A stretch of 64,000 nt of DNA from Candidatus Zixiibacteriota bacterium (GCA_024276275.1 JAJRXM010000072.1:8416-72415); one strand, 5' to 3'. Numbered from the stretch's first letter, positions 15,467 to 50,672 are shown. Translations and numbers: made by a program. The notes: generated from the letters alone by a model not told the origin.

Positions 15467-17566
15467 CTATACATTTAATACTTTGCTTGCTTCAGTCCCA
15501 ATCACACCACGCTGACAATCTTTTGAACTCATAAATGAAGCTGAATGTTTTGCCTGAACAACTATAGCATCAGACAATGATGCACTACAAGCTTCGCTTA
15601 CACATTCCATAATTGCTTTTCTTGCAGAGACAACAACCGGGTCAGATGAATCAGGAGGTTGCAAAGTAGCCGACAGATTTTGTAAACCTTCAGTCGCTAC
15701 TTATCTTTTTGTCAGTCCATGATTGTCACCCGACGCAGTTTTCCATGCCATCTTAATTGCATCTTCTTCTGTACCTGCAAAATCAATAAGCCACCCGACC
15801 GCACCAGATGCTTTTACCGCTTGACCGGTAAATAGTAAGTCGGAAATTTTTGACCAGTCTTCTTTTTTTGCTTTCCGAAATGACCAATGACACCCTTCCA
15901 TACCCGGTATTACCGGCAATGTAACCTCCGGCATTCCAACCTGACAATCATTTGTTGCAATAAGATAATGACAATGCATCATCAATTCCAGCATACCGCC
16001 TAAGCATCGTTTACCGTTCAAGAATCCAACTGAAACTTTGAACTCATCATGCAGCCTTCTTGCCGTTGTTGACCAATTTAATGATATGTCGTATCCTTTG
16101 TCAGCATCTTCTAAGGCAGGATAAAAATCAGATGTATCGGCACCGACTAATTGTGTCGAGAAATGGAAATCACCTGACAAAATTACTCGTTCAATATTTT
16201 CAGATTTTAACCAGTTTATCGCACAGTTTAATTCAATATCTACATCTTTATTATATGATTCACGATTAATAGTAATCAGCCCGACACTGCCGTCATGTTC
16301 AGCATTTACATAGAGCTGCTGCCATTCAGGGTCATTGATTTTTTCAAACACTTCAGGATACCAACAACTTGATGCTGACTGTGGATCTAGTTTATGATAT
16401 TCCTCAACAAGTTTGATTGATTTTTCCGTACCGAGTTGTCTGATTGTTGCCAATATACCTGAACGGAATTGTGCACATATTTCACAGATAGCATTAATAT
16501 GAGAAAGATGTCCCCTGTTTTCATGAAGCATAAGCGATGTCATTTGAATCATTGGACCTAAAATCCATTTGTTCATTTCGTCCAATTCATCATCAGACAA
16601 TGTCCAATTCACTACAGGTCGGAAATGATTAAGAGGATACCAATTTTGACCGCTTTCTTTTCTATATTCCAAGTCAAATGTCGGTTTGAATAAGTTACCG
16701 TACGTTTCACTCAAATGATACAGACAAGACCAAGTTAAGAAATTGGCACCTTTAGCTCCTATAGCATCGTGAGCACGGAACGGATTCGGGCCGAGTAATT
16801 TTCTAATTAGCTTATCAATTTTCCAGTACGGCATGTTTGATGCCTGCCTATATCGTAATCCTGCCGACATTAAGCCGCAGAACAAAACATCTAATACAAA
16901 TGACCAATGATCAGAAACCGGTACAGGAATCAGACCTACTGCCCATAAAAGTTTTGTAATGTCTGAAGGTGTATCTTCTACCGTTTCCCACATTTTGTTA
17001 ATTTGGTGAGGAAATGCTGGATGAGCAATGCCTACACCTAGTTCAGAACTTGGAAACCCTGATGTAACCGAACGAATTGCAATCCCCGGGAATGTCTCCC
17101 GAAAAACCTTATAGTGATTCTTTTTAATATCTAATATTTCAGGGATAGCTTCTAAGAGGAAACGGGGATTAAAATCTTTTAACTGAGATGGTAGTTTTTT
17201 GCCGTCATAATTAAAACGTATGACATTCGCCATTATTTCATCAGCTTGTTTTTGTCCAAACGAGCCTTTGAGCCCTTGGTACTGCATACCGATACCGTCG
17301 GGTGCTCCCGGAAAATCAAGAGCAATAATAGGGATATTATATTTTTGCAAACGTGACCCAAGCTGCATTGTTTTTCCCGCACCCACAATTCCATTTGCTC
17401 CTGAAATAACAATTGCACCTCTATTGGATGAGTCTCCAAAGATTGTGTCTACTAAACTGTCAGCATTAACAGGTAATTTTCCGTTTTTAAAAATATCAAG
17501 GACGTTACCAAGTCCGAAAGTATCAAGTGTCGGTTGTCTGAGTGTTTTCATATTATTTAGCTCCAT
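15467..17566 (-). pseudogene. fused NAD(P)-binding dehydrogenase / enoyl-CoA hydratase (crotonase) protein interrupted by an in-frame TAA
   Basis: The 621-aa ORF 15701-17566 (GANGIVGAG Rossmann; crotonase core CLGGMLELMMHC) ends at TAA 15701-15703. The same frame stays open 77 more codons to TAG 15467-15469 and encodes the missing C-terminal crotonase helices (PVVVSARKAIMECV...SLSDAIVVQAKHSASFMSSKDCQRGV). Confidence 0.75.
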
Positions 17567-18761
17567 CAGTTACTTTGAGAATTGCAGCAATACCGACATC
17601 GCCGGCGGCACATCCAAATATTAATACATATCCTCCGCCCAAAGCAACAGCTTCCTCAAGTGCTTCTATAATCACTCTGGTAAGTGTAGGACCCTGAGGA
17701 TGTCCCCACACTAGCGGACAACCGGTATTGTTTATTTTATGCCAATCATAGTTAAGCAGTTTTGAGAAAATGACATCATTGACCGCAAATGGATTATGGT
17801 TTTTAACAACCGTCATATCATCCATTGTTAATCCGGTTTTTTTCAAAAGTTTTTGAACTGCCATGGCAGGTGATTCCTGCATAAGAGACGGATAGGTTCG
17901 CATTTCGGTTTTACCGACAAATGAAATATCAATCTCAGGTCGAGAGCTGAGTTCCTGTGCTTTTTCTTTAGTAGTAACCAATAAAGTTGCCATACCGTCA
18001 GATGCGTGGGTTTGAGTTCCACCGGTGACACAATCGTCAAGTTCGGGCATTACCTGAAGCATATCATAGGTTAGTTTACGGACACCCTTATCAGAGTCAA
18101 TCATACCTAACGGTTTTCCCTGGACGTTTAATACTTCAAGAGGTACAAGTACATTATCCAATAAACCGGAATCTTTAGCGTTGAAATACTGTTCGTACCG
18201 ATACATTGTTAATTCATCAACTTCACGTCGGTCGGTTTTATGTTTTCTTGCCGCAAATCCGGCACAAGAGAGCATCGCATTGCCTGTAGCAGGGTCAAAA
18301 CCTAAGTTATCCCATACATCGGCGAGTGCCATTGTCCGCTCATGAGCTCTTCTTTCGGGAAATACTCCAACCGGAGAGTCAGATGTTCTGTCAAAAGTCA
18401 AAACCCCTACAACATCGTTGGCATTGCTGTGTACTTCCGATGCTGCTACAATAACAGCTTGTAGTCCGGTGGCACATGCTTGTTCAAGATGAAAACCCGG
18501 AATACGATGGTCAACACAGCTTGCAATCATCGGTGCTGTCCAAAATTTCCAATGCCATGGAATTGTAGAGCCTAAAATTAAATAATCTAATGAAGTAGTG
18601 GGAACTTTTCGTAAACTGAGAATTCTATTCATTGCTTCGCCAGCAAATTGTCCGATATTTACTTCAGCCAAAGCTGATGTCTGCCATGCGGGGAAAAAAC
18701 TAGACCCCCAGGTGCCGTATGGAATCCTTGCCCGTGAAAACATTTCTCTGGTGCTCGTCAT
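17553..18761 (-). CDS. thiolase-family acyltransferase, first gene of the aromatic operon
   Basis: 402 aa; EQACATGLQAV (active-site Cys context), GHPQGPTLTR, GCAAGDVG. Confidence 0.8.
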   Translation of the reverse strand: MTSTREMFSRARIPYGTWGSSFFPAWQTSALAEVNIGQFAGEAMNRILSLRKVPTTSLDYLILGSTIPWHWKFWTAPMIASCVDHRIPGFHLEQACATGLQAVIVAASEVHSNANDVVGVLTFDRTSDSPVGVFPERRAHERTMALADVWDNLGFDPATGNAMLSCAGFAARKHKTDRREVDELTMYRYEQYFNAKDSGLLDNVLVPLEVLNVQGKPLGMIDSDKGVRKLTYDMLQVMPELDDCVTGGTQTHASDGMATLLVTTKEKAQELSSRPEIDISFVGKTEMRTYPSLMQESPAMAVQKLLKKTGLTMDDMTVVKNHNPFAVNDVIFSKLLNYDWHKINNTGCPLVWGHPQGPTLTRVIIEALEEAVALGGGYVLIFGCAAGDVGIAAILKVTDGAK

Positions 18762-18976
18762 TTATGATCTCCTATCTGATAAACCAGCATATAATACCTT
18801 TTTTACCATAATAGTTTATCAAAATATTTCTGAAAATGCAACTGAATATGATTTATAGTTTGTTAAAAAGAACAATTTTAAAAAATACGATAGAAAATGA
18901 TATTTTATTGATAGTTTTTGATGTACTTTTATAACCTTCTTAATTAGTACCGATAGGACATTGCCCTTTCTATAAG

Positions 18977-19013
18977 TGACAGACCTCAAAATCGAGACCT
19001 GACCTGCAAAACT
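18977..19013. repeat. 37-bp direct repeat, copy 1 (tgacagacctcaaaatcgagacctgacctgcaaaact)
   Basis: Exact match to 20778-20814, same orientation; lies between the BNR gene terminator and the aromatic operon. Confidence 0.9.
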
Positions 19014-19014
19014 T

Positions 19015-19042
19015 AAAAGCTCCATTTTTCAATGGAGCTTTT
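19015..19042 (-). terminator. bidirectional hairpin terminator downstream of the BNR propeller gene
   Basis: Perfect 12-bp stem aaaagctccatt / aatggagctttt, loop tttc, with A and T runs built into the stem ends. Confidence 0.7.
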
Positions 19043-19137
19043 TATATGATTTTATCTAAACCAAACGAGATAAGTGAACACTTTAGATTTTTTAAAAACG
19101 TAAGTATACGACTATGTAGATTAGTTTGTTAAAACAT

Positions 19138-20515
19138 TTAATCATCACTATCATCAGTAGTTCGTAATATTGTGCCATAGCTTCCAACTGCTGTTCCATT
19201 GTTGGCATCAATGTAACTGACACCATAAAGGTAGTTTGTTGTATAACTTGTTTGAGTCTGCCAAGATGCACCGCCATTTGAAGTTCGTAAGATTGTACCA
19301 CTCGCTCCAACTACTACCCCATCGTTAGTATCAATGAAACTGATTCCATAAAGTGATGAAAATAAACCACTTGATTGCCTCACCCAGTTTGCTCCACCAT
19401 CTGTTGTCCGTAAGATTGTTCCACCGGCCCCAACTGCTGTCCCATTGTTGGCATCAATAGAGCTGACTCCTTGGAGATGACTCGTTGTGTTACTTGTTTG
19501 ACTCACCCAGGTCACCCCACCATCAGTTGTTCGTAAGATTGTACCACCGGTTCCAACTGCTATCCCAATGTTGGCATTAATGAAACTGATTCCTTGGAGA
19601 TGACTCGTTGTGCCACTTGTTTGACTCTGCCAGGATGCACCGCCATTTGAAGTTCGTAAGATTGTACCACTCGCTCCAACTGCTGTCCCATTGTTGGTAT
19701 CAATAAAACTGACTCCTTGGAGATGACTCGTTGTTCCACTTGTTTGACTCCCCCAGGTTGCTCCACCATCTTTTGTTCGTAAGATTGTGCCATTCGCTCC
19801 AACTGCTACCCCATTGTTGGCATCAATGAAGCTGACTCCATTAAGTGAGGAAGCTGTACCACTTGTTTGCCTCAGCCAGGTTGCTCCACCATTAGTAGTT
19901 CGTAATATTGTGCCATTCGCTCCAACTACTGCCCCAATATTAGTATCAATGAAACTGGCTCCATTAAGTGAGGAAGTAGTAACCCCTGGTTGACTCAACA
20001 AGATTGCTCCACTATCAGTAATTCGTAAGATTGTGCCATTATCTCCTACCGCTGTACCATGATTAGCATCAATAAAACTAACACCAAAGAGCCAATTAGT
20101 TATGCCACTTGATTGACTCACCCAGGTTGCTCCACCATCTGTAGTTCGTAAGACTTGTACCTGTTAATCCAACTGCTACCCCATTGTTGGCACCAAAAAA
20201 GCTGACTCCCATGAGAGCAATAGTTGTGCCACTTGATTGACTCACCCAGGTTGCTCCACCATCTGTTGTTCGTAAGATTGTACCACCGGTTCCAACTGCT
20301 ATCCCAATGTTGGCATCAATGAAACTGACATCCCTGAGATGATGGCCTTGCGGTAGAGGATTCTGCCAGATCCATTCGGAAGGTCCTGTTTGAACAGTTC
20401 CCGGATTAGTAGGATTGGATTTTGAACAAGATAAAGACAATAATATTAACAGTATTATTACGAAAGACAAATTTGACTTATAAAAATTATGCGAAAAAAA
20501 CATATTTTCTCCCAA
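19138..20515 (-). pseudogene. BNR/Ycf48-like beta-propeller lipoprotein with about ten 41-aa blades, frameshifted
   Basis: Lipobox LLSLSC. Repeated GxxGTILRTTDGGxTWxxQ(T/S)SG units have a 123-bp DNA period. ORFs 20096-20515 and 19138-20121 overlap in different frames; segment 20150-20176 has one base more than the equivalent segment of other repeats. Likely start is the ATG at 20503 behind GGGAGA. Confidence 0.8.
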
Positions 20516-20777: not shown

Positions 20778-20814
20778 TGACAGACCTCAAAATCGAGACC
20801 TGACCTGCAAAACT
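20778..20814. repeat. 37-bp direct repeat, copy 2
   Basis: Exact match to 18977-19013; a degenerate partial third copy lies at about 20699-20720. Confidence 0.9.
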
Positions 20815-25144: not shown

Positions 25145-25161
25145 ATGTTATAAGAATTTTT

Positions 25162-27018: not shown

Positions 27019-27029
27019 GAATTTGCTAA

Positions 27030-31571: not shown

Positions 31572-32300
31572 ATGAAACCGATTCTTATAATACAAAACTG
31601 CAAAATTGAATCTGCAGGAACAATTCTTGATTACTTTAATCAAAAAGGAATATCGTACACACTATTTCATGCGTATACTAATTCCGAATTCCCTGACTTA
31701 GAAAACTTTGATGCTGTTATCAGTCTCGGCTGCCCTCATTCAGTTACCTCGTATCGGCAACATCAGTTCTTGCTAAAATTATATGCTTATGTAGTCCAAA
31801 TTGTCAGAATAAACAAACCTTATTTAGGTATCTGTTTCGGAGCGCAAATTCTTGCCAAAGTACTCGGGGCTTCTGTTGAACCTAACGAGGTTAAAGAAAT
31901 CGGGACATACAATATGACTCTTACTGAAGATGGAAAAAAAGATTATATATTTAATAATATCAAAGATAATTTTTCAGCCTTTCAATGGCATGGAGACAAA
32001 TTTAAAATTCCTTTCGGAGCAACTTTACTAGCCACATCAGCAGATTGCACTAATCAAGCATTCAGAAAAAACAATGCAGTCGGAATACAGTTTCATTTTG
32101 AGGCTGACATTAACGAGATTCCTTCCTGGTGTGACACTTATGCCGATGAACTTTCAGAGTTTGGCAAAACAAAAGAAGAAATCATAACTGCCTATCAGAA
32201 AAAATTTGAAAAAATTAAAACTGACAATTTCCGATTGCTTGAAAATTTCCTATCGACAAAGGGCAGTAGCAGTAGGTCGGGTTCACGAAGCCACCGATAG
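31572..32300 (+). CDS. class I glutamine amidotransferase-like protein
   Basis: GATase1 nucleophile elbow LGICFGAQILA, later QWHGD and IQFHFE. Start moved to the ATG at 31572 because the upstream part is the speE terminator. Confidence 0.7.
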   Translation: MKPILIIQNCKIESAGTILDYFNQKGISYTLFHAYTNSEFPDLENFDAVISLGCPHSVTSYRQHQFLLKLYAYVVQIVRINKPYLGICFGAQILAKVLGASVEPNEVKEIGTYNMTLTEDGKKDYIFNNIKDNFSAFQWHGDKFKIPFGATLLATSADCTNQAFRKNNAVGIQFHFEADINEIPSWCDTYADELSEFGKTKEEIITAYQKKFEKIKTDNFRLLENFLSTKGSSSRSGSRSHR

Positions 32301-32354
32301 GCGGATATAGAACCGACAGATTTTGAACTAATTTTGAAAAACAACAATTTTGGT

Positions 32355-32906
32355 TTATTTTATTCTGTTCCTGCTTCTCAAAATCAGGATTGTAATAACA
32401 TACATTAAGACGATAGCAAATGGTATCGCTACAAATCTGTGTTCAGGGAGTAGGTACCATAGAAGAAGCACTAATACTGTTCTTACGACTGCATGGAAAA
32501 CCCCGACCCAGTGCTTAACCATCCAAGAAAACGGCATCCACATCGTTCCTGTCAGGATTCCGATTGTCATAGGCAAAGAAGTGTAATCAATAAGAAAAAA
32601 AGGAATTGCAATAGAGTAAACTAAAACCGCTTGCCCGACAGCAAATAAGAATAGATTGTCAAATGTGTTTTTTGGTTTCGTTTTATCGAGAAAGTTTTCC
32701 CCTGTAAATCGTGATATAAACAAACCTAAATATACAATACTGCCTGTACCGATAAATAGAACCCAAACTGTTATTTTTGGCGGATAGATTAGTCCGGCGA
32801 TTCCAATAAGTAGCCAAACTATTAATCCAGCTAAAGGTGTAGCAAGAAATTTTCTATTTGAAAATTCAACTCTTTGTTCTTCTAAAGTTCTGTCAATATA
32901 TTCCAC
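32355..32906 (-). CDS. hypothetical integral membrane protein
   Basis: 183 aa with about 5 hydrophobic helices; GTG start; immediately downstream of valS. Confidence 0.5.
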   Translation of the reverse strand: MEYIDRTLEEQRVEFSNRKFLATPLAGLIVWLLIGIAGLIYPPKITVWVLFIGTGSIVYLGLFISRFTGENFLDKTKPKNTFDNLFLFAVGQAVLVYSIAIPFFLIDYTSLPMTIGILTGTMWMPFSWMVKHWVGVFHAVVRTVLVLLLWYLLPEHRFVAIPFAIVLMYVITILILRSRNRIK

Positions 32907-32915
32907 CGAATACAG

Positions 32916-35591
32916 TTACCAACCCAAGATTTGTTCGAGATTTTTATTCAGCTTTTCGATTCGTTCCTGATAGTCCTCTTTTTTAGCTTTTTCTTTAGCA
33001 ATAACATCATCGGGAGCATTTGCTAAAAAGTCAGGATTAGCAAGTTTACGAGAAACTTTTTCAAGTTGATTTTTCAAATTGGTTAAATCTTTTTCAAGTC
33101 GTGATTTTTCAACTTCAATATCTATAAGTCCTTCGAGCGGAATAAATATCTCGGCACCTGAAATAATTGCCGATGCGGCCAGTTGAGGTTTTTGTGTATC
33201 TGTACCAACAAAAAGATTTTCAACTTTTATTAAAGAACGGAAATAGCCTATATGATTTTCTAAAAGTTTGGCAAACTCAGCATCTTTTACTTTTATATAC
33301 AAGTCGGATTTTTTACCCGGAGGAACATTCAACTCAGCTCGTACCGAACGAACGGCAGTTACAACTGCCTGAATTTGTTCAAGCGATTCTTCTAGCTGTT
33401 CATCAATAAAAGAACCGTCAGACTTTGTCCATTCAGCGAACAAAATAGTATCTGAAGAACCCTCAATCATCGTGTGCAGTTCTTTATAAATATTTTCAGT
33501 TACAAACGGTGTAAATGGATGCATCAATATTAAAATCTGATTGAGAACATAAGCCGCAACATTGAGTGAGCCTTCTCGTATCTCTTACCCTTGTTTATCC
33601 GGTTTCATAAGTTCAACATACCAGGAACAGAAGTCATTCCATACAAAGTTATAAACTGTCTTTGAGGCAGTCGATAGTCGATATTCATCCATAGATTTAT
33701 TAACCGACTCAACCGCCCGTTGTAATCTTGAAAGAATCCATCGGTCAAAAATAACTAAATCATCAGCATTTACAGAATTAAGGTCTGGTTTTTTATCGCC
33801 TATCCGCATCATTACAAATCGCGATACCTGGTGTAACTTATTTATAAAATTCCTACCGACTTCAAAAGTATTTTTAGAAAGCCATGGGTCTTGACCGTCA
33901 GGTGTTGAAAGGACCATAGAAATTCTTAAAGCATCGGCACCGTATTTATCAATAATTTCTAATGGATCAATTCCGTTACCGAGAGATTTTGACATCTTCA
34001 CACCGTTGGCATCACGAACCGTTCCGTGAATATAGACATCGGTAAACGGAAGCCCGCCCACAAATTCGTATCCTGCCATTACCATTCTGGCAACCCACAG
34101 AAAAATAATTTCTGAACCGGTACTCAGAACTTTTGTCGGATAAAACGCCTTTAGGTCTTCTTCATTGTTCGGCCAGCCCAATGTAGAGAACGGCCATAGC
34201 CATGAGGAAAACCAAGTGTCTAAAACATCTTCATCTTGTACTAAAGACTCAGGGTCGTAACCTTTACATTGTTCGGCTGTCGGTCTGCCGACAGAAATAA
34301 ACATAGTACCGTCTTCAGCATACCAAACCGGAATACGATGTCCCCACCAAAGTTGACGGGAGATACACCAATCACGGATATTTTCCATCCAATGCAGATA
34401 TGTTTTTGACCAGTAGTCAGGATGGAATTTTATTTCGCCGTTTTTAACAGCATCAATAGCCGGTTTGGCAAGTTCGGACATTTTTACAAACCATTGGTCA
34501 GAAAGATACGGCTCTACAATATTATGACATCTATAACAGGTTCCTGCTGAAAGGTCGTAATCTTCGATTTTATCCAGATGACCTTTTTCTTCTAATTCTT
34601 TCACAAGCTGTTTCCGGCAGTCATATCTTTTGAGCCCTTTGAATTTTCCGCCGTTCTCGTTGATAGTACCGTCGATATTTAGAATATTGATTTCTTCCAA
34701 ATCATGTCGCCGTCCGATTTCAAAATCGTTAGGATCATGAGCAGGAGTTACTTTAACAACACCGGTACCAAATTCAGGGTCTACATAGCTATCGGCAACA
34801 ATCGGAATTTCACGTTCTAAAATCGGAAGTATAACTTTTTTACCAACATACTTTTTAAATCTTGAATCTTTAGGTGAAACCGCCAAAGCAGTATCGCCAA
34901 GCATTGTTTCCGGTCTTGTTGTAGCAACGGTAAGGTAATCGTCGGAGCCTTTTAGCTTATATTTTATATACCATAAATGGCTTTTGGAATCTTCATGTTC
35001 GACTTCATCATCAGATAAAGATGTCTGGCACGAGATACACCAATTTACAATACGATGCCCTCGGTATATGTAACCTTTTTCATACAAATGTTTGAATACC
35101 TGTTCAACAGCAGAAGTAAGACCGTCATCAAGTGTATATGCTGTGCGACTCCAATCGCAAGAACATCCCATTTTTTCCAGTTGGTGTAAAATTTTACCTT
35201 TATTTAATTCTGCCCAATTTTGGGTACGTTCAACAAACTTTTCACGTCCGATTTCACGACGAGTGGAACCTTCCTGTATTAATTGTTTTTCAACAATAAC
35301 CTGTGTAGCAATACCGGTATGGTCGACACCGGGAATCCAGGTAGTTTCATACCCCTGCATGCGATGTTTTCGTATGAGGATATCCTGAATAGTATTATTT
35401 AAGGCGTGTCCTAAATGTAAAACCGATGTAACATTCGGAGGAGGTATAACTAATGAATACGGATTTTTTTTCGACTTATTATCTGCCGTGAAGTAATTAT
35501 TATCGAGCCAGTCCTGATATATTTTTGGTTCTATTTCAGATGCTTGATAGGCACCTGATTTAATTTCTTTATTTTCGTTTTGCTTGCTCAT
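32916..35591 (-). pseudogene. valS: valyl-tRNA synthetase interrupted by one in-frame TAA
   Basis: ORF 33585-35591 has the class I motifs LHLGHALN and KMSKS. ORF 32916-33527 holds the C-terminal helical/coiled-coil part. Both are in the same frame. TAA at 33585-33587 is followed by 19 sense codons (EIREGSLNVAAYVLNQILIL) leading into the conserved MHPFTPFVTE. Confidence 0.9.
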
Positions 35592-35659
35592 TATCTCGTT
35601 ATTTCTTATATATGTGCCGTTCTCTTTTCAAGATTACGACAGGTTAATTTAGAACGACC

Positions 35660-35688
35660 AATGTAGGCGGATTATCCGATTTTGTCAA
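35660..35688 (-). promoter_or_regulatory. sigma-70-type promoter for valS (TTGACA-N17-TACATT)
   Basis: Minus strand TTGACA at 35688-35683 and TACATT at 35665-35660. Confidence 0.5.
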
Positions 35689-35780
35689 GATAGATTACTT
35701 TTTCCACTTACAAGTCAAATAATATATCGGATTTATTTTTAATTACGATGTTAAACCCATAAAGGTTACTATCGACAGAT

Positions 35781-36578
35781 ATGAATGATACTAAAAGTAA
35801 AGTTTTTAACAAAAAAATCCCTCCTTTTGAGCGTTTAGTAGCTATTTTTGAGGTTTTACGTTCTGAAAAAGGATGTGCATGGGATAGAAAACAAACTCAT
35901 AAAAGTCTGCTGCCTTATTTAATAGAAGAGGCATACGAAGTATATGAAGCAATTGAAAATGAAGACTATAATGAGCTAAAGGAAGAATTAGGTGATTTAG
36001 TTTGTCAGGCAGTTTTTCACGCACAACTTGCTAAAGAACGAGGTGATTTTGATATTGACGATTCACTGACTCATATAGTTGAAAAGCTGATTAGACGGCA
36101 TCCGCACATTTTTGCTGATGAAAAAAAACTCAATCCGCAAGAGGTAAGAGACCAGTGGGAAAAGATAAAAGTACAGTCGGGTGAAAAAAAAGATGTACTT
36201 TCGGGACTTCCAAAAGCAATGCCTGCTCTGACTATGGCATTTCGAATCGGAGAAAAAGCTGGCGGTATCGGTTTTGACTGGGAAAAATCTTCCGATGTCT
36301 TAGATAAAATAGATGAAGAATTAAAAGAACTAAAAGCAGAAATAATTTCCGGCAACAAAGATGCGATTGAAGATGAAATCGGTGATTTACTCTTTGCCGT
36401 CGCCTCATTAGCTCGTAAAGTAGAAATTGACCCTGAAGTAGCTCTAAAAAGAGCACTTGATAAATTTAAAAAGAGATTTTCTAAATTAGAAGAAACAATA
36501 CGCTCTGAAGGAAAATCTTATGATGAGTATTCGCTGAGCCAACTTGAAAATATCTGGCAAAAAATAAAAAAAATTTAA
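35781..36578 (+). CDS. mazG: nucleoside triphosphate pyrophosphohydrolase MazG
   Basis: 265 aa; two MazG repeats with EEAYEVYEAIE and ELGDLL / EIGDLLFA motifs. Confidence 0.85.
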   Translation: MNDTKSKVFNKKIPPFERLVAIFEVLRSEKGCAWDRKQTHKSLLPYLIEEAYEVYEAIENEDYNELKEELGDLVCQAVFHAQLAKERGDFDIDDSLTHIVEKLIRRHPHIFADEKKLNPQEVRDQWEKIKVQSGEKKDVLSGLPKAMPALTMAFRIGEKAGGIGFDWEKSSDVLDKIDEELKELKAEIISGNKDAIEDEIGDLLFAVASLARKVEIDPEVALKRALDKFKKRFSKLEETIRSEGKSYDEYSLSQLENIWQKIKKI

Positions 36579-36869
36579 TTGACAGTTGAATTGATTTGTT
36601 GTTTTATCTCAAATGCTAAAAGATAAAGACTTTTATTTATATAATTTTTTTGTTGTTTTTTGTTTTAAACAAAAGTAGTTTTCTTGTCAGCATGAAAAAA
36701 AATTCATGATGTGAAACTTTTTTTGAACAAATTAGTATAGTAAATGTTACGGATTGACATAGATGTTTTAAACATTAAGAAAATGTGATGTTTTAAACTT
36801 TTAACTAAAGGAGAAAAGAAAAGAAACACCGATTTATTAAATGTTTGTAATTTTTTAGTTTAAAATTTA

Positions 36870-38018
36870 ATGGAGAAAAAAATGAAAAAATTTATAATAA
36901 TTACTTTTGTATTTGTAATGTTGCTTAGCATCAATGCTATGGCTACTGAAACCCGTGTTATGACAATGGGTGATAATAATAATGTATTACTTGATGATGC
37001 CAATATTTGGTTGTATCCAAGTCGTATTCTTGATTACCCAAATTTAGCAACTGCTGAACTTGGTTATTGGTCAAATCAGTTTGATAATTTTGGTGTAAAC
37101 TGGAAATTTGACGGTTCCACAGAAAGAGTAATCGTAACTTATTTTTCTACTCGTAATTCAATGAGCTACAATATACCTAACTTTAATATGTCTCTTCCTA
37201 ATCGTAGGATTGATTTATTTTACGGTCAAAATTTAGGCGGAAATAAATTTGGTGTACATGTTAACTACAACCAAAGCAGCAATAAATATGAAAACAATAC
37301 CTCTTTCGGTAATTCAGAAGAAGCATTAAGCAAAGTTGATATCTCTGTAGGTTTAACTGAAGCATCGGATAAATGGGATGTTGCTCTTGACTTCGGATTT
37401 GGTTCATTTACAAACAAAGATAATGCCGGTCTTGATGAAAACGAAGCAGATGGATTTAATAACATAGGTTTTATGGGTCGTTACTTCATTCAAAGAAATC
37501 CTAATTATACAATGATTCCTCATGCAGCTATTTATACTGATAAATTTGGAGTTAAAGATGCTTCCGGATCAAATATCGATAAATTAGTTATGATTGACGT
37601 AGGTTGGGGTATGAATTTTACTCCTTCAAATCATGTATTAGGTGTTTTTGACTTTGGTGTTATGTATTCCAAAACAACTATGGAATTTCAACCGATCTCA
37701 GGCACATCAACTGAAACAACTACAAAAAATACAGCCTTACCTTATTTCAAAATGGGTATTGACGGTGATGTATTCAAATGGTTAGATGTCCGTTTTGGTG
37801 CAACTTCCTATTGGAATAGTTACAAATATGAAGCTGCTACAGTTTCTCAGACTCAAAAATATGCTTCTAACAGAACTTACTTTGGTTTAGGTTTCAAATG
37901 GGGTCACCTCAATGTTGATACCGAAGCTAATCCGGGTTTCTTCTTAGACGGTCCTGATTTCCTTTCAGGTGCTGACCAAGATATGTCTTGGAGACTTTCA
38001 GCAACTTACGCTATGTAA
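36870..38018 (+). CDS. porin-like outer-membrane beta-barrel protein (family not recognised)
   Basis: 382 aa; signal peptide MKKFIIITFVFVMLLSINAMA, aromatic-rich alternating strands. The ATG at 36882 behind GGAG may be the real start. Confidence 0.55.
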   Translation: MEKKMKKFIIITFVFVMLLSINAMATETRVMTMGDNNNVLLDDANIWLYPSRILDYPNLATAELGYWSNQFDNFGVNWKFDGSTERVIVTYFSTRNSMSYNIPNFNMSLPNRRIDLFYGQNLGGNKFGVHVNYNQSSNKYENNTSFGNSEEALSKVDISVGLTEASDKWDVALDFGFGSFTNKDNAGLDENEADGFNNIGFMGRYFIQRNPNYTMIPHAAIYTDKFGVKDASGSNIDKLVMIDVGWGMNFTPSNHVLGVFDFGVMYSKTTMEFQPISGTSTETTTKNTALPYFKMGIDGDVFKWLDVRFGATSYWNSYKYEAATVSQTQKYASNRTYFGLGFKWGHLNVDTEANPGFFLDGPDFLSGADQDMSWRLSATYAM

Positions 38019-38042
38019 TAAACTGATTTAATAGATTTATTT

Positions 38043-38069
38043 AAAGCCCGCTTTTGGCGGGTTTTTTTT
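38043..38069 (+). terminator. Rho-independent terminator after the porin-like gene
   Basis: gcccgc / gcgggt hairpin followed by T8. Confidence 0.65.
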
Positions 38070-41885: not shown

Positions 41886-44030
41886 TTAGTTCTCCAACAT
41901 CGGTAAATAAATAGTAAATGTTGTACCTTTACCATATTCAGAGCTTACAGATAGAGTACCGTCATGAGCTGAAATAATCCGTTCTACGACAGCCAAGCCT
42001 AATCCGGTACCGGTAGATTTTGTAGTAAAGTATCTGTCAAATATTTTGGAAATATTTTCCTTTTTTATACCTTCACCGGTATCAGAAACTTTTAAAGCTA
42101 GGTAATCGACTTTTTTATGTTCAGGGCGTTCGATAAGACCTTTCACGACAATTTTACCGCCATCAGGCATCACATCTATCGCATTAATAAACAGATTTAG
42201 AAAAACTTCCAATATTTGATTTTTATTTATAATAACTTTCCAGTCAGCCTCTTCAAATTGAGTTTCAAACTTAATATTTTTTCTTTCTAAATCCTGTTGA
42301 ACTAAATGGGCTGCCTTTTTAATAAGAGATTTCAGATTTACTTTTTCCGTTTCATATTTGTTTGGATTTGAAAAATCAACCAGTTCACGGACTAATTCAT
42401 TCATTCGTATAACTTCATCTTCAACCGTTTTAAACAGTTCGGAGTCGTTGGAATCTTTTGCCCATCGCCCTCTGATGACCTGCAAACCTCCTTTGATAGT
42501 CGTCAACGGTCTTCGTAAGTCATGAGAAATCTCTGAAATCATGTTGCCCATTGTTAATAGTCTGGTAGCATTTAGTAGTGCTTTTTCTTTTTCAAATAAG
42601 AGTGCTGATTGAGAAATAACTAACTTCGCCAATGATACGTCATCTTCATTATAAAAATGGTCTGAAAACGAGCCGATAAATGCGACAAATATCAAGTCAC
42701 CGTTTCTAAAAATCGGTACCGCCAGAGATGCTTCCAATGGATTAGGGAGAATTGAGTTTTGTCGAATTTCTTTTGTAAGAATCTCGGTAATTTTTTTAAT
42801 ATCATGTTGATCTATCAAATCAATTTCCGGTGAATTTATAACAAGTGATTCCCAATCAATTTTAGACAGGTCAATTTTTCCGCTCGAGGTAAGAGGTATA
42901 TTTTTTACACCTGACACCGACTCTATGACAAAAATTTTATTTTCGTTGTCCCAGCTTAGCCAGATAGAATAATCAATAGGAAAAACCCGTTCTAATTTAG
43001 TAAAAAGAATATCTCGGAAATCTTTTAATGAATTTACACCCTGCATCTCTTTTGTCATTTCATGAAGGATTTCAAATTCAATTAACCGACGACGTTTCTT
43101 TTCAAACTGATTAGCATCATCAACCGCAATAGCAGCTTGTGCTGCAAATGTTGTAAGCATTCGCAAATCATTTGAGGTGAACTTTTCATTCCCCTCTTTG
43201 TTTGCCATATTTATAACACCGATAACTTTGTTTTTAATTTTTAACGGAGCACATAATAGCGATGCTGAGCCATATCTTTCTTTACTTACTCTTTTAAACT
43301 GGGAATGTTCTTCCACATTTTCAATGATCAACGGCTCACCTTTTAAAGCGACAGAACCGGCAATTGATTCACCGATAGCAAGATGTGTTGATTCAATAAT
43401 CTCTTTACTTAAACCGCTTGCTGCCTCGATAGTAAGATACTTATTTCGCTCATCCAGTAACATAATAGAACCGACCTTTGCATCTGTAACATTCGACGCT
43501 AAGGCGACAATTTGTCTGAGTAAATCTTTTAGATTCGATGTTGAACCGATAGATTTTCCTGCTTCATAAAGAGCATTTATTTCGCCGATTCTTCTGTTCA
43601 ATATCAAGTTTGATATTTTTAGTTCTTCCAATAAGGTAAATCGTGCTAAATCTGAGCGTCTTTTGTCTAGAGCTCTTTTGACAGCTAAAACAAGTTTGGT
43701 AAATTCAATCGGCTTCATTAAATAATCATACGCCCCGGATGATATTGCTTCTAAGGCAGTATCTAACGATGCATATCCGGTCAGCAGAATAACCGGAATA
43801 TCAGAATCAACTGATTTTACCGTTTTTAAAAGATCAAGCCCGTTTTGGTCAGGCATTTTTATATCAGTAATTACTAAATCAACTTTATTCTGTTTGATAG
43901 ATTCGGCTGCTTCCAGCGAATTTTGGAATGATTCTACCTGATATCCCTCACCCTCAAGCAAGGCAGAGAGAGATTCACACATTCTTTGTTCATCATCAAC
44001 AACAATTATTTTTTCAGATATTGGGCTCAT
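41886..44030 (-). CDS. hybrid sensor kinase: REC - GAF - GAF-like - HisKA - HATPase
   Basis: 714 aa; N-terminal receiver (IIVVDDE ... DIKMPDQNG), GAF region, ISHDLRRPLTTI, DTGEGI ... GTGLGLAVV. Confidence 0.85.
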   Translation of the reverse strand: MSPISEKIIVVDDEQRMCESLSALLEGEGYQVESFQNSLEAAESIKQNKVDLVITDIKMPDQNGLDLLKTVKSVDSDIPVILLTGYASLDTALEAISSGAYDYLMKPIEFTKLVLAVKRALDKRRSDLARFTLLEELKISNLILNRRIGEINALYEAGKSIGSTSNLKDLLRQIVALASNVTDAKVGSIMLLDERNKYLTIEAASGLSKEIIESTHLAIGESIAGSVALKGEPLIIENVEEHSQFKRVSKERYGSASLLCAPLKIKNKVIGVINMANKEGNEKFTSNDLRMLTTFAAQAAIAVDDANQFEKKRRRLIEFEILHEMTKEMQGVNSLKDFRDILFTKLERVFPIDYSIWLSWDNENKIFVIESVSGVKNIPLTSSGKIDLSKIDWESLVINSPEIDLIDQHDIKKITEILTKEIRQNSILPNPLEASLAVPIFRNGDLIFVAFIGSFSDHFYNEDDVSLAKLVISQSALLFEKEKALLNATRLLTMGNMISEISHDLRRPLTTIKGGLQVIRGRWAKDSNDSELFKTVEDEVIRMNELVRELVDFSNPNKYETEKVNLKSLIKKAAHLVQQDLERKNIKFETQFEEADWKVIINKNQILEVFLNLFINAIDVMPDGGKIVVKGLIERPEHKKVDYLALKVSDTGEGIKKENISKIFDRYFTTKSTGTGLGLAVVERIISAHDGTLSVSSEYGKGTTFTIYLPMLEN

Positions 44031-45426
44031 ATTTCCTATCTTTATTTATCAACGGCAGCCTAATTTCAAAACAACCGCCACTTTCCTCATTATGAAAAGT
44101 TATCGACCCATTATGCTTTTTTATTATACCGTAACAGACAGAAAGTCCGAGACCGGTACCTTTTGAAGGTTCTTTTGTTGTGAAAAACGGTTCAAATATT
44201 CTTGGAACCAGTTCAGGAGGAATACCCGGACCGGTATCAGAAAAACAAATAGAGATTTCATCACCGACCGTTGTAATAGCTATCCGTACCTGCCCGCCGT
44301 CAGGCATAGCGTCATAGGAGTTGATTATGAGATTTAAAAAGACCTGTTTTATGCCTTCAGGGGATATTTCTATTTCAGGAATATTCGGGTCAAATCGTTT
44401 TTCAATGATGACCTTATTTTTTTCAAACTGCCTGCTCATGAGAGAAATAACCGATGTCGCCAGTTTGGCAATGTCAACTCTTTGGAATTCAAATCCTCGG
44501 GGGCGATGAAAATCAAGAAGTTCAGAAACAATTTTTGCTATTCTATCTATTTCGTTATCTACAATATCTAAATACTCAATTGATTTTTTGTTATCCACTA
44601 CTAATTTATTCGTTAAGAGTAAATAGTTTTTTATAATTCCTAACGGGTTATTGATTTCATGGGCAACTTTTGCTGACATTTCTCCCAAAGCCGCCAATCG
44701 TTCAGAATGAACTAATTGTTGTTGAGTTTCACGCAGTTGTTTGGTCGCTTTTTTTTCTGCTTCGTATAGCCATGTATTTTCAATTGCTACAGAGATTTGG
44801 TTACCTAAAATTGAAAGAAACTCCAGGTCATCCTCGGTAAATTCTCTTGAGGATATTTTATCGCTGATAATAAATAATCCGCTTAACTCCGATTGATACA
44901 TAAGCGGAATAATTAAACCGTTTTCAAAAAATGAGAGAATTTTTTTTTCTTTCTTATTAGCAGTAGTTTCCAGAAGTTCAATTATTTTTGACGGTCTGTT
45001 TATTTTTGCCAGATTCAAAAGCATTTTTGAACCGTCTTCAAAAACATTCTCAACTGAAGGAAATTTACCCGAGCCTTTAAATTTTGTTAAGATAAATTTC
45101 TTATCATCAGAATGAGTTTAAAGATAGAAAGCTGCTTTCATAGAACCGACTTGGGCAAGTGATGTAAAAATAAATGTGTCCAGAAGTTGTTGATAGTCCA
45201 AAAGAGTGTTAAAATTACGACTGATTTCAAAAATTGTATACAAATCAAAAATCTTACGCTTATGTACTCTGTTCAGTTCCGTTAGTGAGCGAACTTTACT
45301 CTCCATTGCTTTAATCGTTTCTTGCAGTTCTGCTTTAGTTGGAGTTTTAGAGACTGACAGATTTTCTACCGTTTTCTTTTTATTCGTATTCTTTTTTGAA
45401 TTAGCCGATTTCTTATTTTGTTTCAT
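44014..45426 (-). pseudogene. GAF-domain sensor histidine kinase interrupted by one in-frame TAA
   Basis: ORF 45118-45426 (coiled coil plus start of a GAF domain) and ORF 44014-45024 (rest of GAF, VAHEINNPLGII, DTGPGI ... GTGLGLSV) share one frame. TAA at 45118-45120 is followed by 31 sense codons (THSDDKKFILTKFKGSGKFPSVENVFEDGSK). Confidence 0.8.
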
Positions 45427-46712: not shown

Positions 46713-47542
46713 ATAAAACGCAGCAGAGAAGTAACTGTTGAGCGAAGATCCTTACGGTTGACTATTTTATCAACAAAACCTTTTTCTAAAAAGAATTCGG
46801 TAGATTGAAATCCTTCAGGTAAATCCTGACCGATAGTTTGCTGAATTACACGAGGTCCGGCAAAGCCTAACAATGCTTTTGGTTCGGCTATAATAACATC
46901 ACCTAAAGATGCATACGATGCCATTACCCCAGCAGTAGTCGGATTTGTGAGTATGGAGATATATGGAATTTTCTTTTCGGCAAGCACCGCAAGAAGAGCC
47001 GATGTTTTTGCCATCTGCATGAGAGATAAAATACCCTCCTGCATTCTAGCCCCACCGGAACAGGATATTATGATAAGCGGAAGTTCCATCTCAATAGCTC
47101 TTTCAATCGCACGGGCAATTTTTTCGCCTACAACAGAACCCATCGAACCACCGATAAATTCAAAATTCATTATCGCAAAAGAAACCCGAATATCATTTAT
47201 AGAACTAATACCTGCAATCACACCCTCTTTTTTTCCGGTTTTTAACTGAGCAGCTTTTATACGGTCGGGATATTTTTTTGAATCTTTGAATTTAAGCGGG
47301 TCTTTTGATGTTAAGTTGATATCGTACTCTTCAAGTTTACCGTCATCTAATAATAATTCTATATATCTTTGGGATGCTATCCTGAAATGATAATCACAAT
47401 TTGGACATACCCACAGAAGTTCTTCCATTTTTTTCCCATAGACAACTTCACCACAAGATTTACATTTTGTCCATAGACCTTCGGGGATATTCTTTTTTTC
47501 TTGTTGGGCTAAACCTGACTTATCTTTGCGAAACCATGCCAT
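46700..47542 (-). CDS. accD: acetyl-CoA carboxylase carboxyltransferase beta subunit
   Basis: 280 aa; N-terminal zinc ribbon CKSCGEVVY ... CPNCDYH, GGSMGSVVGEK. Confidence 0.9.
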   Translation of the reverse strand: MAWFRKDKSGLAQQEKKNIPEGLWTKCKSCGEVVYGKKMEELLWVCPNCDYHFRIASQRYIELLLDDGKLEEYDINLTSKDPLKFKDSKKYPDRIKAAQLKTGKKEGVIAGISSINDIRVSFAIMNFEFIGGSMGSVVGEKIARAIERAIEMELPLIIISCSGGARMQEGILSLMQMAKTSALLAVLAEKKIPYISILTNPTTAGVMASYASLGDVIIAEPKALLGFAGPRVIQQTIGQDLPEGFQSTEFFLEKGFVDKIVNRKDLRSTVTSLLRFMWSN

Positions 47543-47545
47543 AAT

Positions 47546-48025
47546 TTATTCTTCCCTGTTATAATCAAAATAATGTACCATCACCAAGGCATCTTCAAGC
47601 GGATTATGGTAGTACCTTGGGCGTTGATACAAAAGTTTAAAGTCATATTTTTCATAAAAAGCAATAGCCTCTTTATTGCTCGGCCTTACTTCAAGTAAAA
47701 GAAATTCACATCTGAATTCTTGTACAATGTTAAAGATATTATCCAAAAGCAGTTTCGCAACTGATTTTCTACGAAATTCTTCGGCTACAGCGATATTAGT
47801 CAAATGCGACTCAGACGCGGCAATATAGTAACAGGCGTAACCTATTATCTCTCTTTCGGTTTCAGCAACAAACCCGCCCCAGCCGTCATCTTCGACCTGT
47901 TCTTTAAAAGAATTATAAGACCAAGGATCAGGGAAAACATCATGCTCCAATACGACGACTTTTTCCAAATCGGCGAACTGCATTTCCCGAACGGATATTT
48001 TTTCATTTTTGATTTTTGAGGTCAA
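47546..48025 (-). CDS. rimI: ribosomal-protein-alanine N-acetyltransferase (GNAT)
   Basis: 159 aa GNAT fold; conserved tsaE-tsaB-rimI context. Confidence 0.75.
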   Translation of the reverse strand: MTSKIKNEKISVREMQFADLEKVVVLEHDVFPDPWSYNSFKEQVEDDGWGGFVAETEREIIGYACYYIAASESHLTNIAVAEEFRRKSVAKLLLDNIFNIVQEFRCEFLLLEVRPSNKEAIAFYEKYDFKLLYQRPRYYHNPLEDALVMVHYFDYNREE

Positions 48026-48686
48026 AATTTATCTCCGCCTGAGATTTTTGTATATATAACGGCTCTAAAGTATTAATGTTTTCAAACATCTGTTGTTCAA
48101 TTTTTTTCTTCCCGATAGTATTCAGATCCGACGCATCGTAGATAAGTCTATCTGAGCAATCAAATTCTGTAATATCGGAGAAATAGGATTGCAAATCTAT
48201 ACCAAATGCGGCAATTTTCTTTTCAGAACAAATATCCATAAAGTTTTTTAATGTAACTGTTTGTAACTTAGATAAATCATACTTATCCTCACAGACAGGG
48301 ACAACAAAAAACTCATCTTTTTTAAACGGAACGACAATAAGAATTTCCTCTATCTCATTCTGTAATTTATAAGCAGCGAGTTCAAAAAGATTGACCGATA
48401 TAATTTTAATCCCTAATGCAACAGCTATACCTTTGGCAACAGCAATACCGATACGCAGTCCGGTAAAAGAACCCGGCCCTGTAGATACAATAATAGCATG
48501 TAAATCTGTTTTGGAGATTTCTGAAGAATTAAACAGCTCATCAATTTTTTTTATTATAATTTGTCCATGCGACTGTTCGGCCGGTTCTTCCGATTTAACT
48601 AAACGATCACTACCAAAGGAAAGTGCAAGTTTCAGTATGTTTGAAGAAGAATCTATTGTTAATATATTTTGATATACATCACTCAT
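48003..48686 (-). CDS. tsaB: tRNA t6A37 biosynthesis protein TsaB
   Basis: 227 aa; GPGSFTGLRIGIAVAKGIA. Confidence 0.8.
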   Translation of the reverse strand: MSDVYQNILTIDSSSNILKLALSFGSDRLVKSEEPAEQSHGQIIIKKIDELFNSSEISKTDLHAIIVSTGPGSFTGLRIGIAVAKGIAVALGIKIISVNLFELAAYKLQNEIEEILIVVPFKKDEFFVVPVCEDKYDLSKLQTVTLKNFMDICSEKKIAAFGIDLQSYFSDITEFDCSDRLIYDASDLNTIGKKKIEQQMFENINTLEPLYIQKSQAEINFDLKNQK

Positions 48687-49116
48687 TTATAATTAACGAG
48701 ATAACAATTTCCCGTTCCTTTTCATTCATCATTGAAAATGTAATTTTATAATATCTGTTTGGAAGGAATTCATCAGCCCGTTCACCCCATTCGACTACTA
48801 CTAACCCATTTTTGTTCAGATAATCATCCCAACCGATTTCAATCAGCTCAGAACTATCGCCTAAGCGATATAAATCAAAATGATACATCGGACGATTGCC
48901 TGGATATTCATTAACAATTGTATATGAAGGCGAGTTGACTATCATTTCATCAATACCCAAACCTCGTGCAAGCCCCCGAACAAAAACAGTTTTGCCTGTA
49001 CCTAATTCTCCCGTTAAGACTAATAAGTCATCCGGGGTCAAGAGGCTTATAATCTTTTCCGCTAAAGCAAGCGTCTCCTCTTCAGAATGTGAAATAATTT
49101 GTAGTACTTTTGTCAT
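48679..49116 (-). CDS. tsaE: tRNA t6A37 biosynthesis ATPase TsaE
   Basis: 145 aa; Walker A GELGTGKT, SPSYTIVNEY. Confidence 0.85.
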   Translation of the reverse strand: MTKVLQIISHSEEETLALAEKIISLLTPDDLLVLTGELGTGKTVFVRGLARGLGIDEMIVNSPSYTIVNEYPGNRPMYHFDLYRLGDSSELIEIGWDDYLNKNGLVVVEWGERADEFLPNRYYKITFSMMNEKEREIVISLIINE

Positions 49117-49118
49117 AC

Positions 49119-50672
49119 TTATTTCTTAGGTTTTAATACCGCAACAGGTACGACCATTTCCTCTAGTGATAGACCGCCATGCTGAAATGAATTATGAAAA
49201 TATCTGACCATTTCATTATAGTTATTCGGATAGACAAAATAATAATCTTCTTTTGCTATAATATAGGTTGTTGCGAGTCCTAATTTCGGTAGCCGCCACT
49301 CTTCAGGATTTTTTATTAAAATAGAATCTTTTGGATCAGATTTCAAATTATCACCATACTTATATCGTAAATTTGTAGATGTTGACTTTTTACCATGAGC
49401 TTTGGTTCCTCTTTTACAAAGAGTGGAACCGTGGTCTGATGTCATTACAATAGTATAATCTTCTGAGGCAAATGCTTTTAGTATTGAAAATAAAGACGAG
49501 TGTATAAACCATGATTTCATCAACCCTCGAAAAGCAGCTTCTGTACCTGCGATTTCTTTTAGAATCACATTATTAGAACGTCCATGTACAAGTATATCTA
49601 AAAAGTTAAAAACAATTGAAACAAGAGGAGTTCCAAACAGGTCAGAAACTTTTTTATAAAGCACTTCCCCTTCGGTATTCACATTTATTTTTAAATATTT
49701 CGGTGGACGTTCTGTGCGAACTCCATGACGGGCTAAATTATCGGCAATAAATTTTTCTTCAAATCGATTTAATGACCCTTCGTCTGATTCATTATATGTA
49801 TTATGGTAAGTTTGATGTATTTCATCAGGGAAAAGTCCTGAAAAAATAGCATTTCGGGCAAAAGGTGTCGCTGTCGGCAGTAGTGAAAAATAACTATGTC
49901 TCTGTATAGAATAAAATTCAGCAATCAACGGTTCTATCAACATCCATTGGTCAAGCCTCATACAGTCAACAACAACAAATAAAACTTTCTTTCCTTTTTT
50001 CATTTCAGGTACAACAAATTTTTCTACAATATCAGTTGAGACCATCGGTCGGTCATCACTTCCCAGCCACTCTTTATAGTTTTTTTCAATATATTTGGTA
50101 AATTCGATATTCCATTCTTTGTGGGTACCTTCAAGCATCTCCCTGATACCTTGGTCTTGGTTTTCATCAACTTCAAGATTCCATTCAGCTAGAATTTGGG
50201 CAGCATCCAGCCAATCGTTTGGTTCCAAAGAACCGTAAAGTTTCTGATTAAACTGATTGATATCGGAGATATATCTTTTCATCGACGAGGAGCTGATAAT
50301 TTTTTTTGAATCAAGCTGTCTTTTTATCACCATTAATATCTGTGAAGGGTTCACCGGTTTTACTAAATAGTCATCTATTTTTTGACCAAGAGCATCCTCC
50401 ATAAGTGATTCTTCTTCGGACTTTGTAACCATGACAACCGGAAGATGCGGCGAGATATCTTTTATTTCTTCAAGAGTTGTCAAACCGTCCTTGCCGGGCA
50501 TCATTTCATCAAGTAAAATTAAATCAAATTGTTATTTTGAGACCATTTCGACGGCATCATCACCGGATATAGCTGTTTTTAAAGTGTATCCCTTTTTTTC
50601 AAGGAATAAAATATGCGGTTTTAACGAATCTATTTCATCGTCAACCCATAATATTTTTTGAGATTTATCCAT
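49119..50672 (-). pseudogene. PorX-like response regulator (REC + PglZ/alkaline-phosphatase-superfamily domain) interrupted by one in-frame TAA
   Basis: An ATG at 50672 opens MDKSQKILWVDDEIDSLKPHILFLEKKGYTLKTAISGDDAVEMVSK. TAA at 50532-50534 follows, then the same frame continues QFDLILLDEMMPGKDG... into ORF 49119-50504. C-terminal PglZ-type MTSDHGS. Total is about 517 codons. Confidence 0.8.

Follow-up and report, generated by a model that had tools for sequence, protein, structure and literature searches.

Four conserved genes of a draft Zixibacteria MAG (GCA_024276275.1) are each interrupted by a single in-frame TAA, and these codons are probably recent single-base lesions, most likely errors of the consensus, rather than a feature of decoding (probability about 0.55). 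The stops are not programmed read-through. The window, that is, the whole stretch of DNA analysed, comprises 64,000 nucleotides of this assembly (JAJRXM010000072.1:8416-72415), in which all four genes lie on the minus strand. By translating across each site, it was found that homology resumes in the same frame after the stop, and the Pfam domains of the four genes span or flank the stops. Thus, the claim of the initial annotation that four genes contain one in-frame TAA each, with the frame kept, is borne out. The genes and their stops are as follows:

15467..17566, minus strand: ECH-fusion gene, interrupted, full span (Pfam ECH)
15701..15703, minus strand: TAA in this 3-hydroxyacyl-CoA dehydrogenase/enoyl-CoA hydratase-like fusion gene, codon 622 of 699 (621 + 77 codons)
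32916..35591, minus strand: valS, full span (Pfam tRNA-synt_1, Anticodon_1 and Val_tRNA-synt_C)
33585..33587, minus strand: TAA in valS, anticodon-binding domain, codon 669 of 891 (668 + 222 codons)
44014..45426, minus strand: GAF sensor kinase gene, interrupted, full span (Pfam GAF, HisKA and HATPase_c)
45118..45120, minus strand: TAA in this GAF-HisKA-HATPase sensor kinase, codon 103 of 470 (102 + 367 codons)
49119..50672, minus strand: REC-PglZ regulator gene, interrupted, full span (Pfam Response_reg, 7-116, runs across the stop)
50532..50534, minus strand: TAA in this REC-PglZ (PorX-like) regulator, codon 47 of 517 (46 + 470 codons)

For the ECH fusion, all 80 of the 80 homologous loci align past the stop and reach residue 698-699. 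The valS gene has TAA as its terminator as well, and its C-terminus matches that of its relatives (891 aa). In the regulator, the TAA is located within the loop preceding the β3 strand, which bears the phospho-acceptor Asp. No common motif was found around the four codons, whose contexts are AGA TAA GTA, GGG TAA GAG, CTT TAA ACT and AAA TAA CAA, and no inverted repeats of note surround the inverted valS block. A truncated ValS (P0055, 668 aa) and a truncated regulator (P0126, 461 aa), both encoded on a single NCBI contig (107,176 bp), are already present in the public protein collection; the stops therefore belong to the deposited assembly.

The lesions of the window are of mixed type. The initial annotation had described nonsense lesions only, which is incomplete, since an SDR gene and a BNR-repeat gene are broken by one-base indels in short runs:

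2798..2801, minus strand: one-base deletion in a T-run (T5 to T4) of the SDR/FabG-like gene 2222-2958, leaving ORFs of 69 + 176 aa in different frames
20155..20156, minus strand: one extra A in the BNR/Ycf48-like repeat lipoprotein gene 19138-20515, leaving ORFs of 139 + 327 aa

Once one T is added to the SDR gene, an ORF of 245 aa is regained; as deposited, Pfam covers only profile positions 66-234, and the homologues L062, L065 and L010 are unbroken in one frame. Similarly, removal of one A from the BNR-repeat gene yields an ORF of 458 aa in which the 'GTVLRTTDGGATW' repeat is continuous. Further frameshift candidates given by tblastx, at 3.5-4.6 kb and at 46.3 kb, were rejected, as they stem from faults in the subject locus L018 or from off-frame noise.

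Four internal stops occur in the coding alignment of the window (approximately 43 kb), whereas the nine other clade assemblies have none in approximately 89 kb, and this excess is beyond chance. No stop is common to any relative, even at 91-93% protein identity, or to any of 11 related assemblies; in all relatives, the corresponding positions are occupied by sense codons (GAA, GAG, TCA, ATG). Searches of the GTDB species representatives, JGI metagenomes and protein collection revealed no sequence of the same species, the best matches showing 81-93% protein identity, and exact look-ups with proteins of the window, aimed at the source contig and other strains, gave no hit. The alignment of orthologues across the sites, which had been proposed as a check, places Glu at three sites and Ser at the fourth in the closest relatives. 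At the ECH-fusion site, the closest relatives have Glu, with GAG in L007 and 'GLVKREVATEGL' in P0255; the valS site is GAA (Glu) in L001-L003 and L087; at the GAF kinase site, L006 and L169 read TCA (Ser), and L004 and L005 read ATG; and the regulator site is GAA in L004, L168 and L169 and GAG in L006.

All four stop-creating changes are G:C→T:A transversions, namely, three GAA/GAG→TAA and one TCA→TAA, and not the GC-to-AT route (CAA to TAA) that had been put forward earlier. Under uniform mutation, transversions of this class make up 30% of nonsense opportunities, and the probability of four of four is 0.30^4 ≈ 0.008. The occurrence of TAA alone rather than TAG or TGA is explained by the AT-rich genome, in which GAA is among the commonest codons and is the chief G→T route to a stop; TAA accounts for 65% of G:C→T:A nonsense outcomes, and its appearance at all four sites is unremarkable (0.18).

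The same syndrome is seen in one sister MAG, GCA_024278935.1 (L006/L087; PRJNA771178), which carries five internal stops: three TAA codons, of which two stand in place of GAA and one lies in a flagellin-like gene, a TGA that replaces an invariant Trp, and a TAG in valS. The latter is at codon 63, a different codon from that struck by TAA in the valS of the window. In addition, accD and speE of this MAG have each lost one A from a short run (A5→A4), and the stops of the MAG include G→A and A→T changes. Two of the stops strike 100%-conserved residues and are thus unfiltered by selection. The MAG was obtained from Fe-sulfide vent chimney material by Illumina HiSeq X sequencing (141-150 Gb), and the methods of that study report no whole-genome amplification. 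Another MAG from the same study is clean, which leaves a blanket study artefact without demonstration. Both valS and accD are normally indispensable, single-copy genes. The essentiality of valS had been held to argue against plain pseudogenisation; this argument stands, but it speaks equally for an artefact, and valS is broken in the second MAG too.

In the comparison with L001, valS differs by 66/19/353 at the three codon positions, which indicates strong purifying selection on the gene as a whole; its stop must then be very recent. No sign of relaxed constraint is seen elsewhere in the window, although approximately 10% of the genes are broken. At columns conserved to ≥95% in 21 genes, no missense excess was detected (13/3039 in the window vs 9/2688 in clean relatives) in a test of low power; the excess to be expected from a random process calibrated on the four nonsense hits is 5-9.5. 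Likewise, there is no G:C→T:A excess among the conserved-column missense changes (5/17 vs a background of 24.5%), and neither the GC→AT direction of missense changes nor their de-duplicated rate is in excess, with insufficient power to reject a random process. The TAA codons of the window fall in unusually variable columns (Fisher p = 0.012, n = 4, from within-gene percentiles of 0.02, 0.03, 0.36 and 0.21), a bias that is not seen in GCA_024278935.1. Random errors should not produce this bias.

TAA functions normally as a terminator. It ends 67% of the 57 ORFs in the window, compared to 64-72% in the relatives, and orthologue lengths are identical between the window and the relatives, with TAA at the same C-termini. 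TAA has therefore not been reassigned, in agreement with the initial annotation, which had excluded a global reassignment. In stop-codon usage, in the base after the terminator and in the spacing to the next stop in frame, the window matches the relatives, and back-up stops are not in excess after the terminators. A search with ARAGORN and Rfam of the window and 11 related loci revealed no suppressor tRNA; the only tRNAs found were tRNA-Met and tRNA-Gln(CTG). As a separate observation, tRNA-Gln(CTG) has no counterpart in the window. A literature search for stop-codon anomalies in Zixibacteria returned nothing.

In the most probable scenario, G:C→T:A transversions would have turned three Glu codons (GAA/GAG) and one Ser codon (TCA) into TAA in a draft Zixibacteria MAG in which two other genes have one-base indels as well, and these lesions would not have been seen by selection. 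They would most probably be errors fixed in the deposited consensus, e.g., oxidative-damage or G/T-type miscalls, polymorphic positions or weakly supported ones; less likely, they would be deleterious alleles of the sampled population that chanced to be assembled. Error or decay had been named among the main alternatives from the outset, and this assessment is upheld; we infer error rather than living alleles. Against error weigh the contig of 107 kb, which suggests reasonable coverage, the density of lesions, which is unusual for a short-read consensus, the variable columns of the TAA sites, the lack of a measurable missense excess, for which the power is low, and the clean second MAG of the study behind GCA_024278935.1. 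It is possible, though doubtful, that the nonsense and frameshift alleles are real and belong to a population that is living or was so until recently, generated, for example, by an oxidative-damage (MutY/MutM-type) mutator or under relaxed selection, and represent incipient pseudogenes or mutational load. The transversion signature of four of the four stops would be accounted for in this way, and mixed lesions with short-run indels are typical of spontaneous mutation; moreover, both lesion-rich MAGs have long contigs, and the sequencing depth of GCA_024278935.1 should make consensus errors rare. However, indispensable genes are struck, valS in both MAGs and accD in one; the broken tenth of the genes is accompanied neither by relaxed constraint, as the valS differences illustrate, nor by a missense excess; and no lesion is common to different lineages, so none has persisted.

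If the stops are real, an ochre suppressor (anticodon UUA, perhaps derived from a tRNA-Glu) or leaky UAA termination might translate the stops and make GAA→TAA nearly harmless at tolerant positions. The initial annotation leaned towards such site-specific read-through or suppression, which now appears unlikely, as no stop is conserved, no suppressor tRNA is seen and stop usage shows no adaptation. Ancestral Glu at three of the four sites and at two of the three TAA codons of GCA_024278935.1 would fit suppression, but this bias is accounted for by the G→T bias and the abundance of GAA, and the ancestral Ser (TCA) of the GAF kinase site rules out Glu-specific decoding as the sole explanation. 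The fact that the TAA codons occupy the columns that vary most within their genes, the lack of a detectable missense excess and the presence of essential valS among the affected genes are also in favour of suppression; yet frameshifts are beyond rescue by a suppressor, TAA is still the main terminator without enrichment of back-up stops, and in bacteria only UGA reassignments, and no UAA reassignment, are known (PMC8629427). Quite improbable, too, is an early ambiguous stage of UAA capture in a free-living bacterium of the Zixibacteria, which would tolerate in-frame UAA codons, the one in valS among them, through partial read-through by a suppressor tRNA or leaky termination while UAA remains the main terminator; its footprint would be the bias of TAA to Glu ancestry and to variable positions. 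If the stops are real, function might also be kept by termination followed by re-initiation, with two fragments per protein that assemble, as working split aminoacyl-tRNA synthetases are known. This is very unlikely: the four stops are all in loops or linkers at variable positions, and an in-frame start codon follows each within 10-32 codons, but start codons are expected nearby by chance, no Shine-Dalgarno-like sequence is evident ahead of the restart codons, and a receiver domain could not be rebuilt in the regulator, where the restart falls beyond the phospho-acceptor Asp. Finally, a genome-wide or context-dependent code of the Blastocrithidia type (UAA/UAG = Glu, UGA = Trp) is mimicked by the TAA codons at Glu positions of both MAGs and by the TGA that replaces an invariant Trp in GCA_024278935.1; its probability is practically negligible, since most genes end on TAA at orthologous C-termini, just 4 of approximately 57 genes are affected, the relatives are unaffected, and the stops are accompanied by frameshifts.

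If the lesions are consensus errors, as preferred here, or stray deleterious alleles, the finding is a quality flag only. Approximately one in ten genes in the window MAG and in GCA_024278935.1, including essential genes, would then be miscalled as truncated, and such miscalls distort completeness estimates and metabolic inferences and may mislead genetic-code screens. If, instead, the stops were real, at full allele frequency and translated, they would constitute the first ambiguous UAA decoding in bacteria, where the early ambiguous stage of UAA capture has never been documented, and would bear directly on how stop codons become reassigned.

Compared with known systems, the nuclear code of Blastocrithidia (NCBI table 31, in which UAA is also the terminator) resembles the present case in the association of TAA with Glu and, in GCA_024278935.1, of TGA with Trp. 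However, that code is eukaryotic, its in-frame stops are conserved and pervade most genes, and it is served by dedicated tRNAs and an altered release factor, whereas the stops in the window are rare, unshared and accompanied by indels. The bacterial UGA reassignments (tables 4 and 25) likewise feature in-frame stops in conserved genes of AT-rich genomes, but they concern another codon, which no longer terminates, and the change is clade-wide. The ochre suppressor tRNAs of E. coli, of the supB, supC and supG class, allow in-frame UAA to be read while UAA ends most genes; the residues inserted by known suppressors of this kind are Gln, Tyr or Lys rather than Glu. In contrast to that system, no such tRNA is seen here, and suppression leaves the frameshifts unexplained. 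G:C→T:A is the signature of 8-oxoguanine, whether left by MutY/MutM deficiency in vivo or by oxidative DNA damage during sample handling. The four stop-creating changes, all G→T or C→A, conform to this signature, but they are only four events, missense changes show no G:C→T:A excess, and G→A and A→T stops occur in GCA_024278935.1. The lesions also resemble the sporadic stops and frameshifts of draft MAGs or pseudogenes, which are isolated, lineage-specific, single-base lesions in otherwise conserved genes, with indels in short homopolymers beside the stops. With regard to gene decay, several types of lesion are present, but essential genes are not spared and constraint is not relaxed; the present case also differs in that approximately 10% of the genes are affected, an essential gene is struck and the nonsense sites are biased to variable positions. 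In-frame stops of broken genes typically arise at single-base neighbours of stop codons (PMC8629427), and in the same manner, a single mutation separates each stop in the window from the sense codon of the orthologues.

Translation of the minus strand showed that four genes of the window each carry one in-frame TAA and keep their frame beyond it, as the initial annotation had proposed. The TAA-only picture drawn there had missed two one-base frameshifts; in all, no fewer than six point lesions disrupt genes of the window, which has about 57:

15701-15703, minus strand: in-frame TAA in a hydroxyacyl-CoA dehydrogenase/enoyl-CoA hydratase-like gene (ECH fusion) of 699 codons
33585-33587, minus strand: in-frame TAA at codon 669 of 891 of valS
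45118-45120, minus strand: in-frame TAA at codon 103 of 470 of a GAF-HisKA-HATPase kinase gene
50532-50534, minus strand: in-frame TAA at codon 47 of 517 of a REC-PglZ (PorX-like) regulator gene
2222-2958, minus strand: SDR/FabG-like gene split into two frames, with a Pfam match only to profile positions 66-234
19138-20515, minus strand: BNR/Ycf48-like repeat lipoprotein gene split by one extra A at 20155/20156

Pfam domains span or flank each of the four stops. When the window was scanned mechanically for long open stretches separated by only one stop, these four genes were recovered, the remaining cases being ordinary adjacent genes. The stops are genuinely present in the sequence, far above background. 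The closest proteins carry Zixibacteria annotation, and a public protein collection already contains two of the truncated products, both from one 107,176-bp NCBI contig: ValS (P0055, 668 aa, identity 100%) and the regulator (P0126, 461 aa); therefore, the stops belong to the deposited assembly. The SDR/FabG-like lesion is a one-base deletion in the T-run at 2798-2801: addition of one T there restores a 245-aa ORF, and the homologues in three related loci (L062, L065 and L010) occupy a single frame. Similarly, once one A at 20155/20156 is removed, the BNR/Ycf48-like gene reads as a 458-aa ORF whose repeat is uninterrupted, with about ten regular 'GTILRTTDGGATW' units. With four stops and two frameshifts, the lesions do not form a TAA-only pattern.

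The interrupted ECH fusion is part of a large anaerobic acyl-CoA cluster (1-18761) that contains an acyl-CoA dehydrogenase, two thiolases, two enoyl-CoA hydratases, a Zn-alcohol dehydrogenase, an AMP-forming ligase, and three BcrAD/BadFG-type ATPases with three HGD-D subunits (benzoyl-CoA reductase/2-hydroxyacyl-CoA dehydratase type). The block DUF7010-valS-MazG-382-aa gene (~32300-38050) is inverted relative to the arrangement in the related loci L001, L087 and L172, with no substantial inverted repeats at its edges. The gene at 54958-56796 (plus strand), between a flagellin-like gene and ftsZ, encodes 612 aa with three putative metal-binding motifs of the MopE type and has a match in only one of the loci compared.

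The codons of relatives indicate what each TAA replaced. The valS site is Glu in relatives at 87-92% protein identity (GAA in L001-3 and L087, the 91-92% relatives with DNA), and the regulator site is Glu in relatives at 89-93% (GAA in L004, L168 and L169; GAG in L006). The ECH fusion site is Glu in the two closest relatives (GAG in L007; 'GLVKREVATEGL' in protein P0255), and the GAF kinase site is TCA (Ser) in two relatives and ATG in one. Thus, all four coding-strand changes (three G→T, one C→A) are of the G:C→T:A class, which under uniform mutation and the window's own codon usage makes up 30% of nonsense opportunities (p ≈ 0.008 for four of four). TAA accounts for 65% of the nonsense outcomes in this class, since GAA (1028 codons in the window) far exceeds GAG, GGA, TCG and TGC; four TAA of four (p = 0.18) therefore need no special explanation. 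The G:C→T:A signature together with GAA abundance accounts for the TAA-only stops.

None of the four stops is shared with any relative. In nine other clade assemblies, no internal stop was found across about 89 kb of aligned coding sequence; the long-read assembly L171 shows frameshift noise only. Its GroEL is in three ORFs (4609-5727, on an ENA contig with a long-read-assembler-style name), and this profile of frameshifts with no substitution stops differs from that of the window. Lesions do recur in GCA_024278935.1 (loci L006 and L087), a clade MAG with about 90% protein identity to the window that does not group as its nearest relative:

L006, 9379-9381, 11513-11515, 14991-14993, 6455-6457 and ~13700; L087, 9896-9898 and ~6357: lesion positions of GCA_024278935.1

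Over about 28 kb of aligned coding sequence, this MAG has five internal stops, plus two single-base A5→A4 deletions in accD and speE. Three of the stops are TAA, two of them at GAA positions (in the regulator and a FolC-like ligase) and one in a flagellin-like gene; the others are TGA at a histidine kinase Trp that is invariant and TAG at valS codon 63. Two of the five are at 100%-conserved residues. The MAG came from Fe-sulfide vent chimney material of the Southwest Indian Ridge, sequenced from a NEBNext Ultra library on Illumina HiSeq X (141-150 Gb); for one sample, two DNA extractions were combined to give sufficient DNA (PMC9769843). GCA_024280215.1, another Zixibacteria MAG of that study and of the clade, is clean over 31 kb.

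Based on these results, the four stops belong to a scattered set of single-base lesions of very recent origin, substitutions and indels together. The scatter is blind to gene essentiality, common to no relative and recurrent in one other clade MAG, and its substitutions bear the G:C→T:A signature. We consider that the lesions are errors fixed in the deposited consensus, with a probability of roughly 0.55; that they are real, deleterious alleles present in the sampled population is rather unlikely. To help tell error from biology, missense burden was scored as deviating residues at columns at least 95% conserved in 21 window genes (14-200 homologues each). The 17 deviations in the window reduce after de-duplication to 13 in 3039 columns, against 9 in 2688 for clean close relatives, whose value equals the median over all sequences. 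A random process calibrated on the four nonsense hits predicts 5.0 (G:C→T:A only) or 9.5 (uniform) extra deviations, and the observed excess of about 3 is compatible with both. The conserved-column deviations show no G:C→T:A excess (5/17 versus a 24.5% background), and their GC→AT direction (10:2) is in line with other AT-rich loci (46:14).

Functional rescue, whether by suppression, leaky termination or re-initiation, is improbable even when these are taken jointly, and a suppressor cannot rescue frameshifts. Neither the window nor 11 related loci contain a tRNA with anticodon UUA, the only tRNAs there being tRNA-Met and a tRNA-Gln(CTG), and the four TAA contexts share no common motif. An in-frame start codon lies 10-32 codons past each stop, with no obvious ribosome-binding sequence before it; in the regulator, this restart lies beyond the phospho-acceptor Asp. 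One observation alone is not predicted by random errors and stays unexplained: the four TAA sit in loops or linkers, in unusually variable columns (percentiles 0.02, 0.03, 0.36 and 0.21 among the nonsense-opportunity codons of the same gene; Fisher combined p 0.012, n = 4). Given n = 4 and the opposite behaviour of GCA_024278935.1, this bias is not taken as evidence for decoding.

The stops do not mark a decoding system. A change of genetic code, already set aside as a global reassignment in the initial annotation, is essentially excluded: TAA is still the main terminator (67% of 57 window ORFs, with TAG 23% and TGA 11%; 64-72% in close relatives) and stands at orthologous gene ends, as TAA-ended genes (valS, the regulator, accD, serS and sigma-54 activators) equal their orthologues in length. 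Terminators show no adaptation, either in the base after the stop or in how far away the next in-frame stop lies. Known bacterial stop reassignments concern UGA only, and the in-frame stops of broken genes characteristically arise from codons that differ from a stop codon by one base (PMC8629427).
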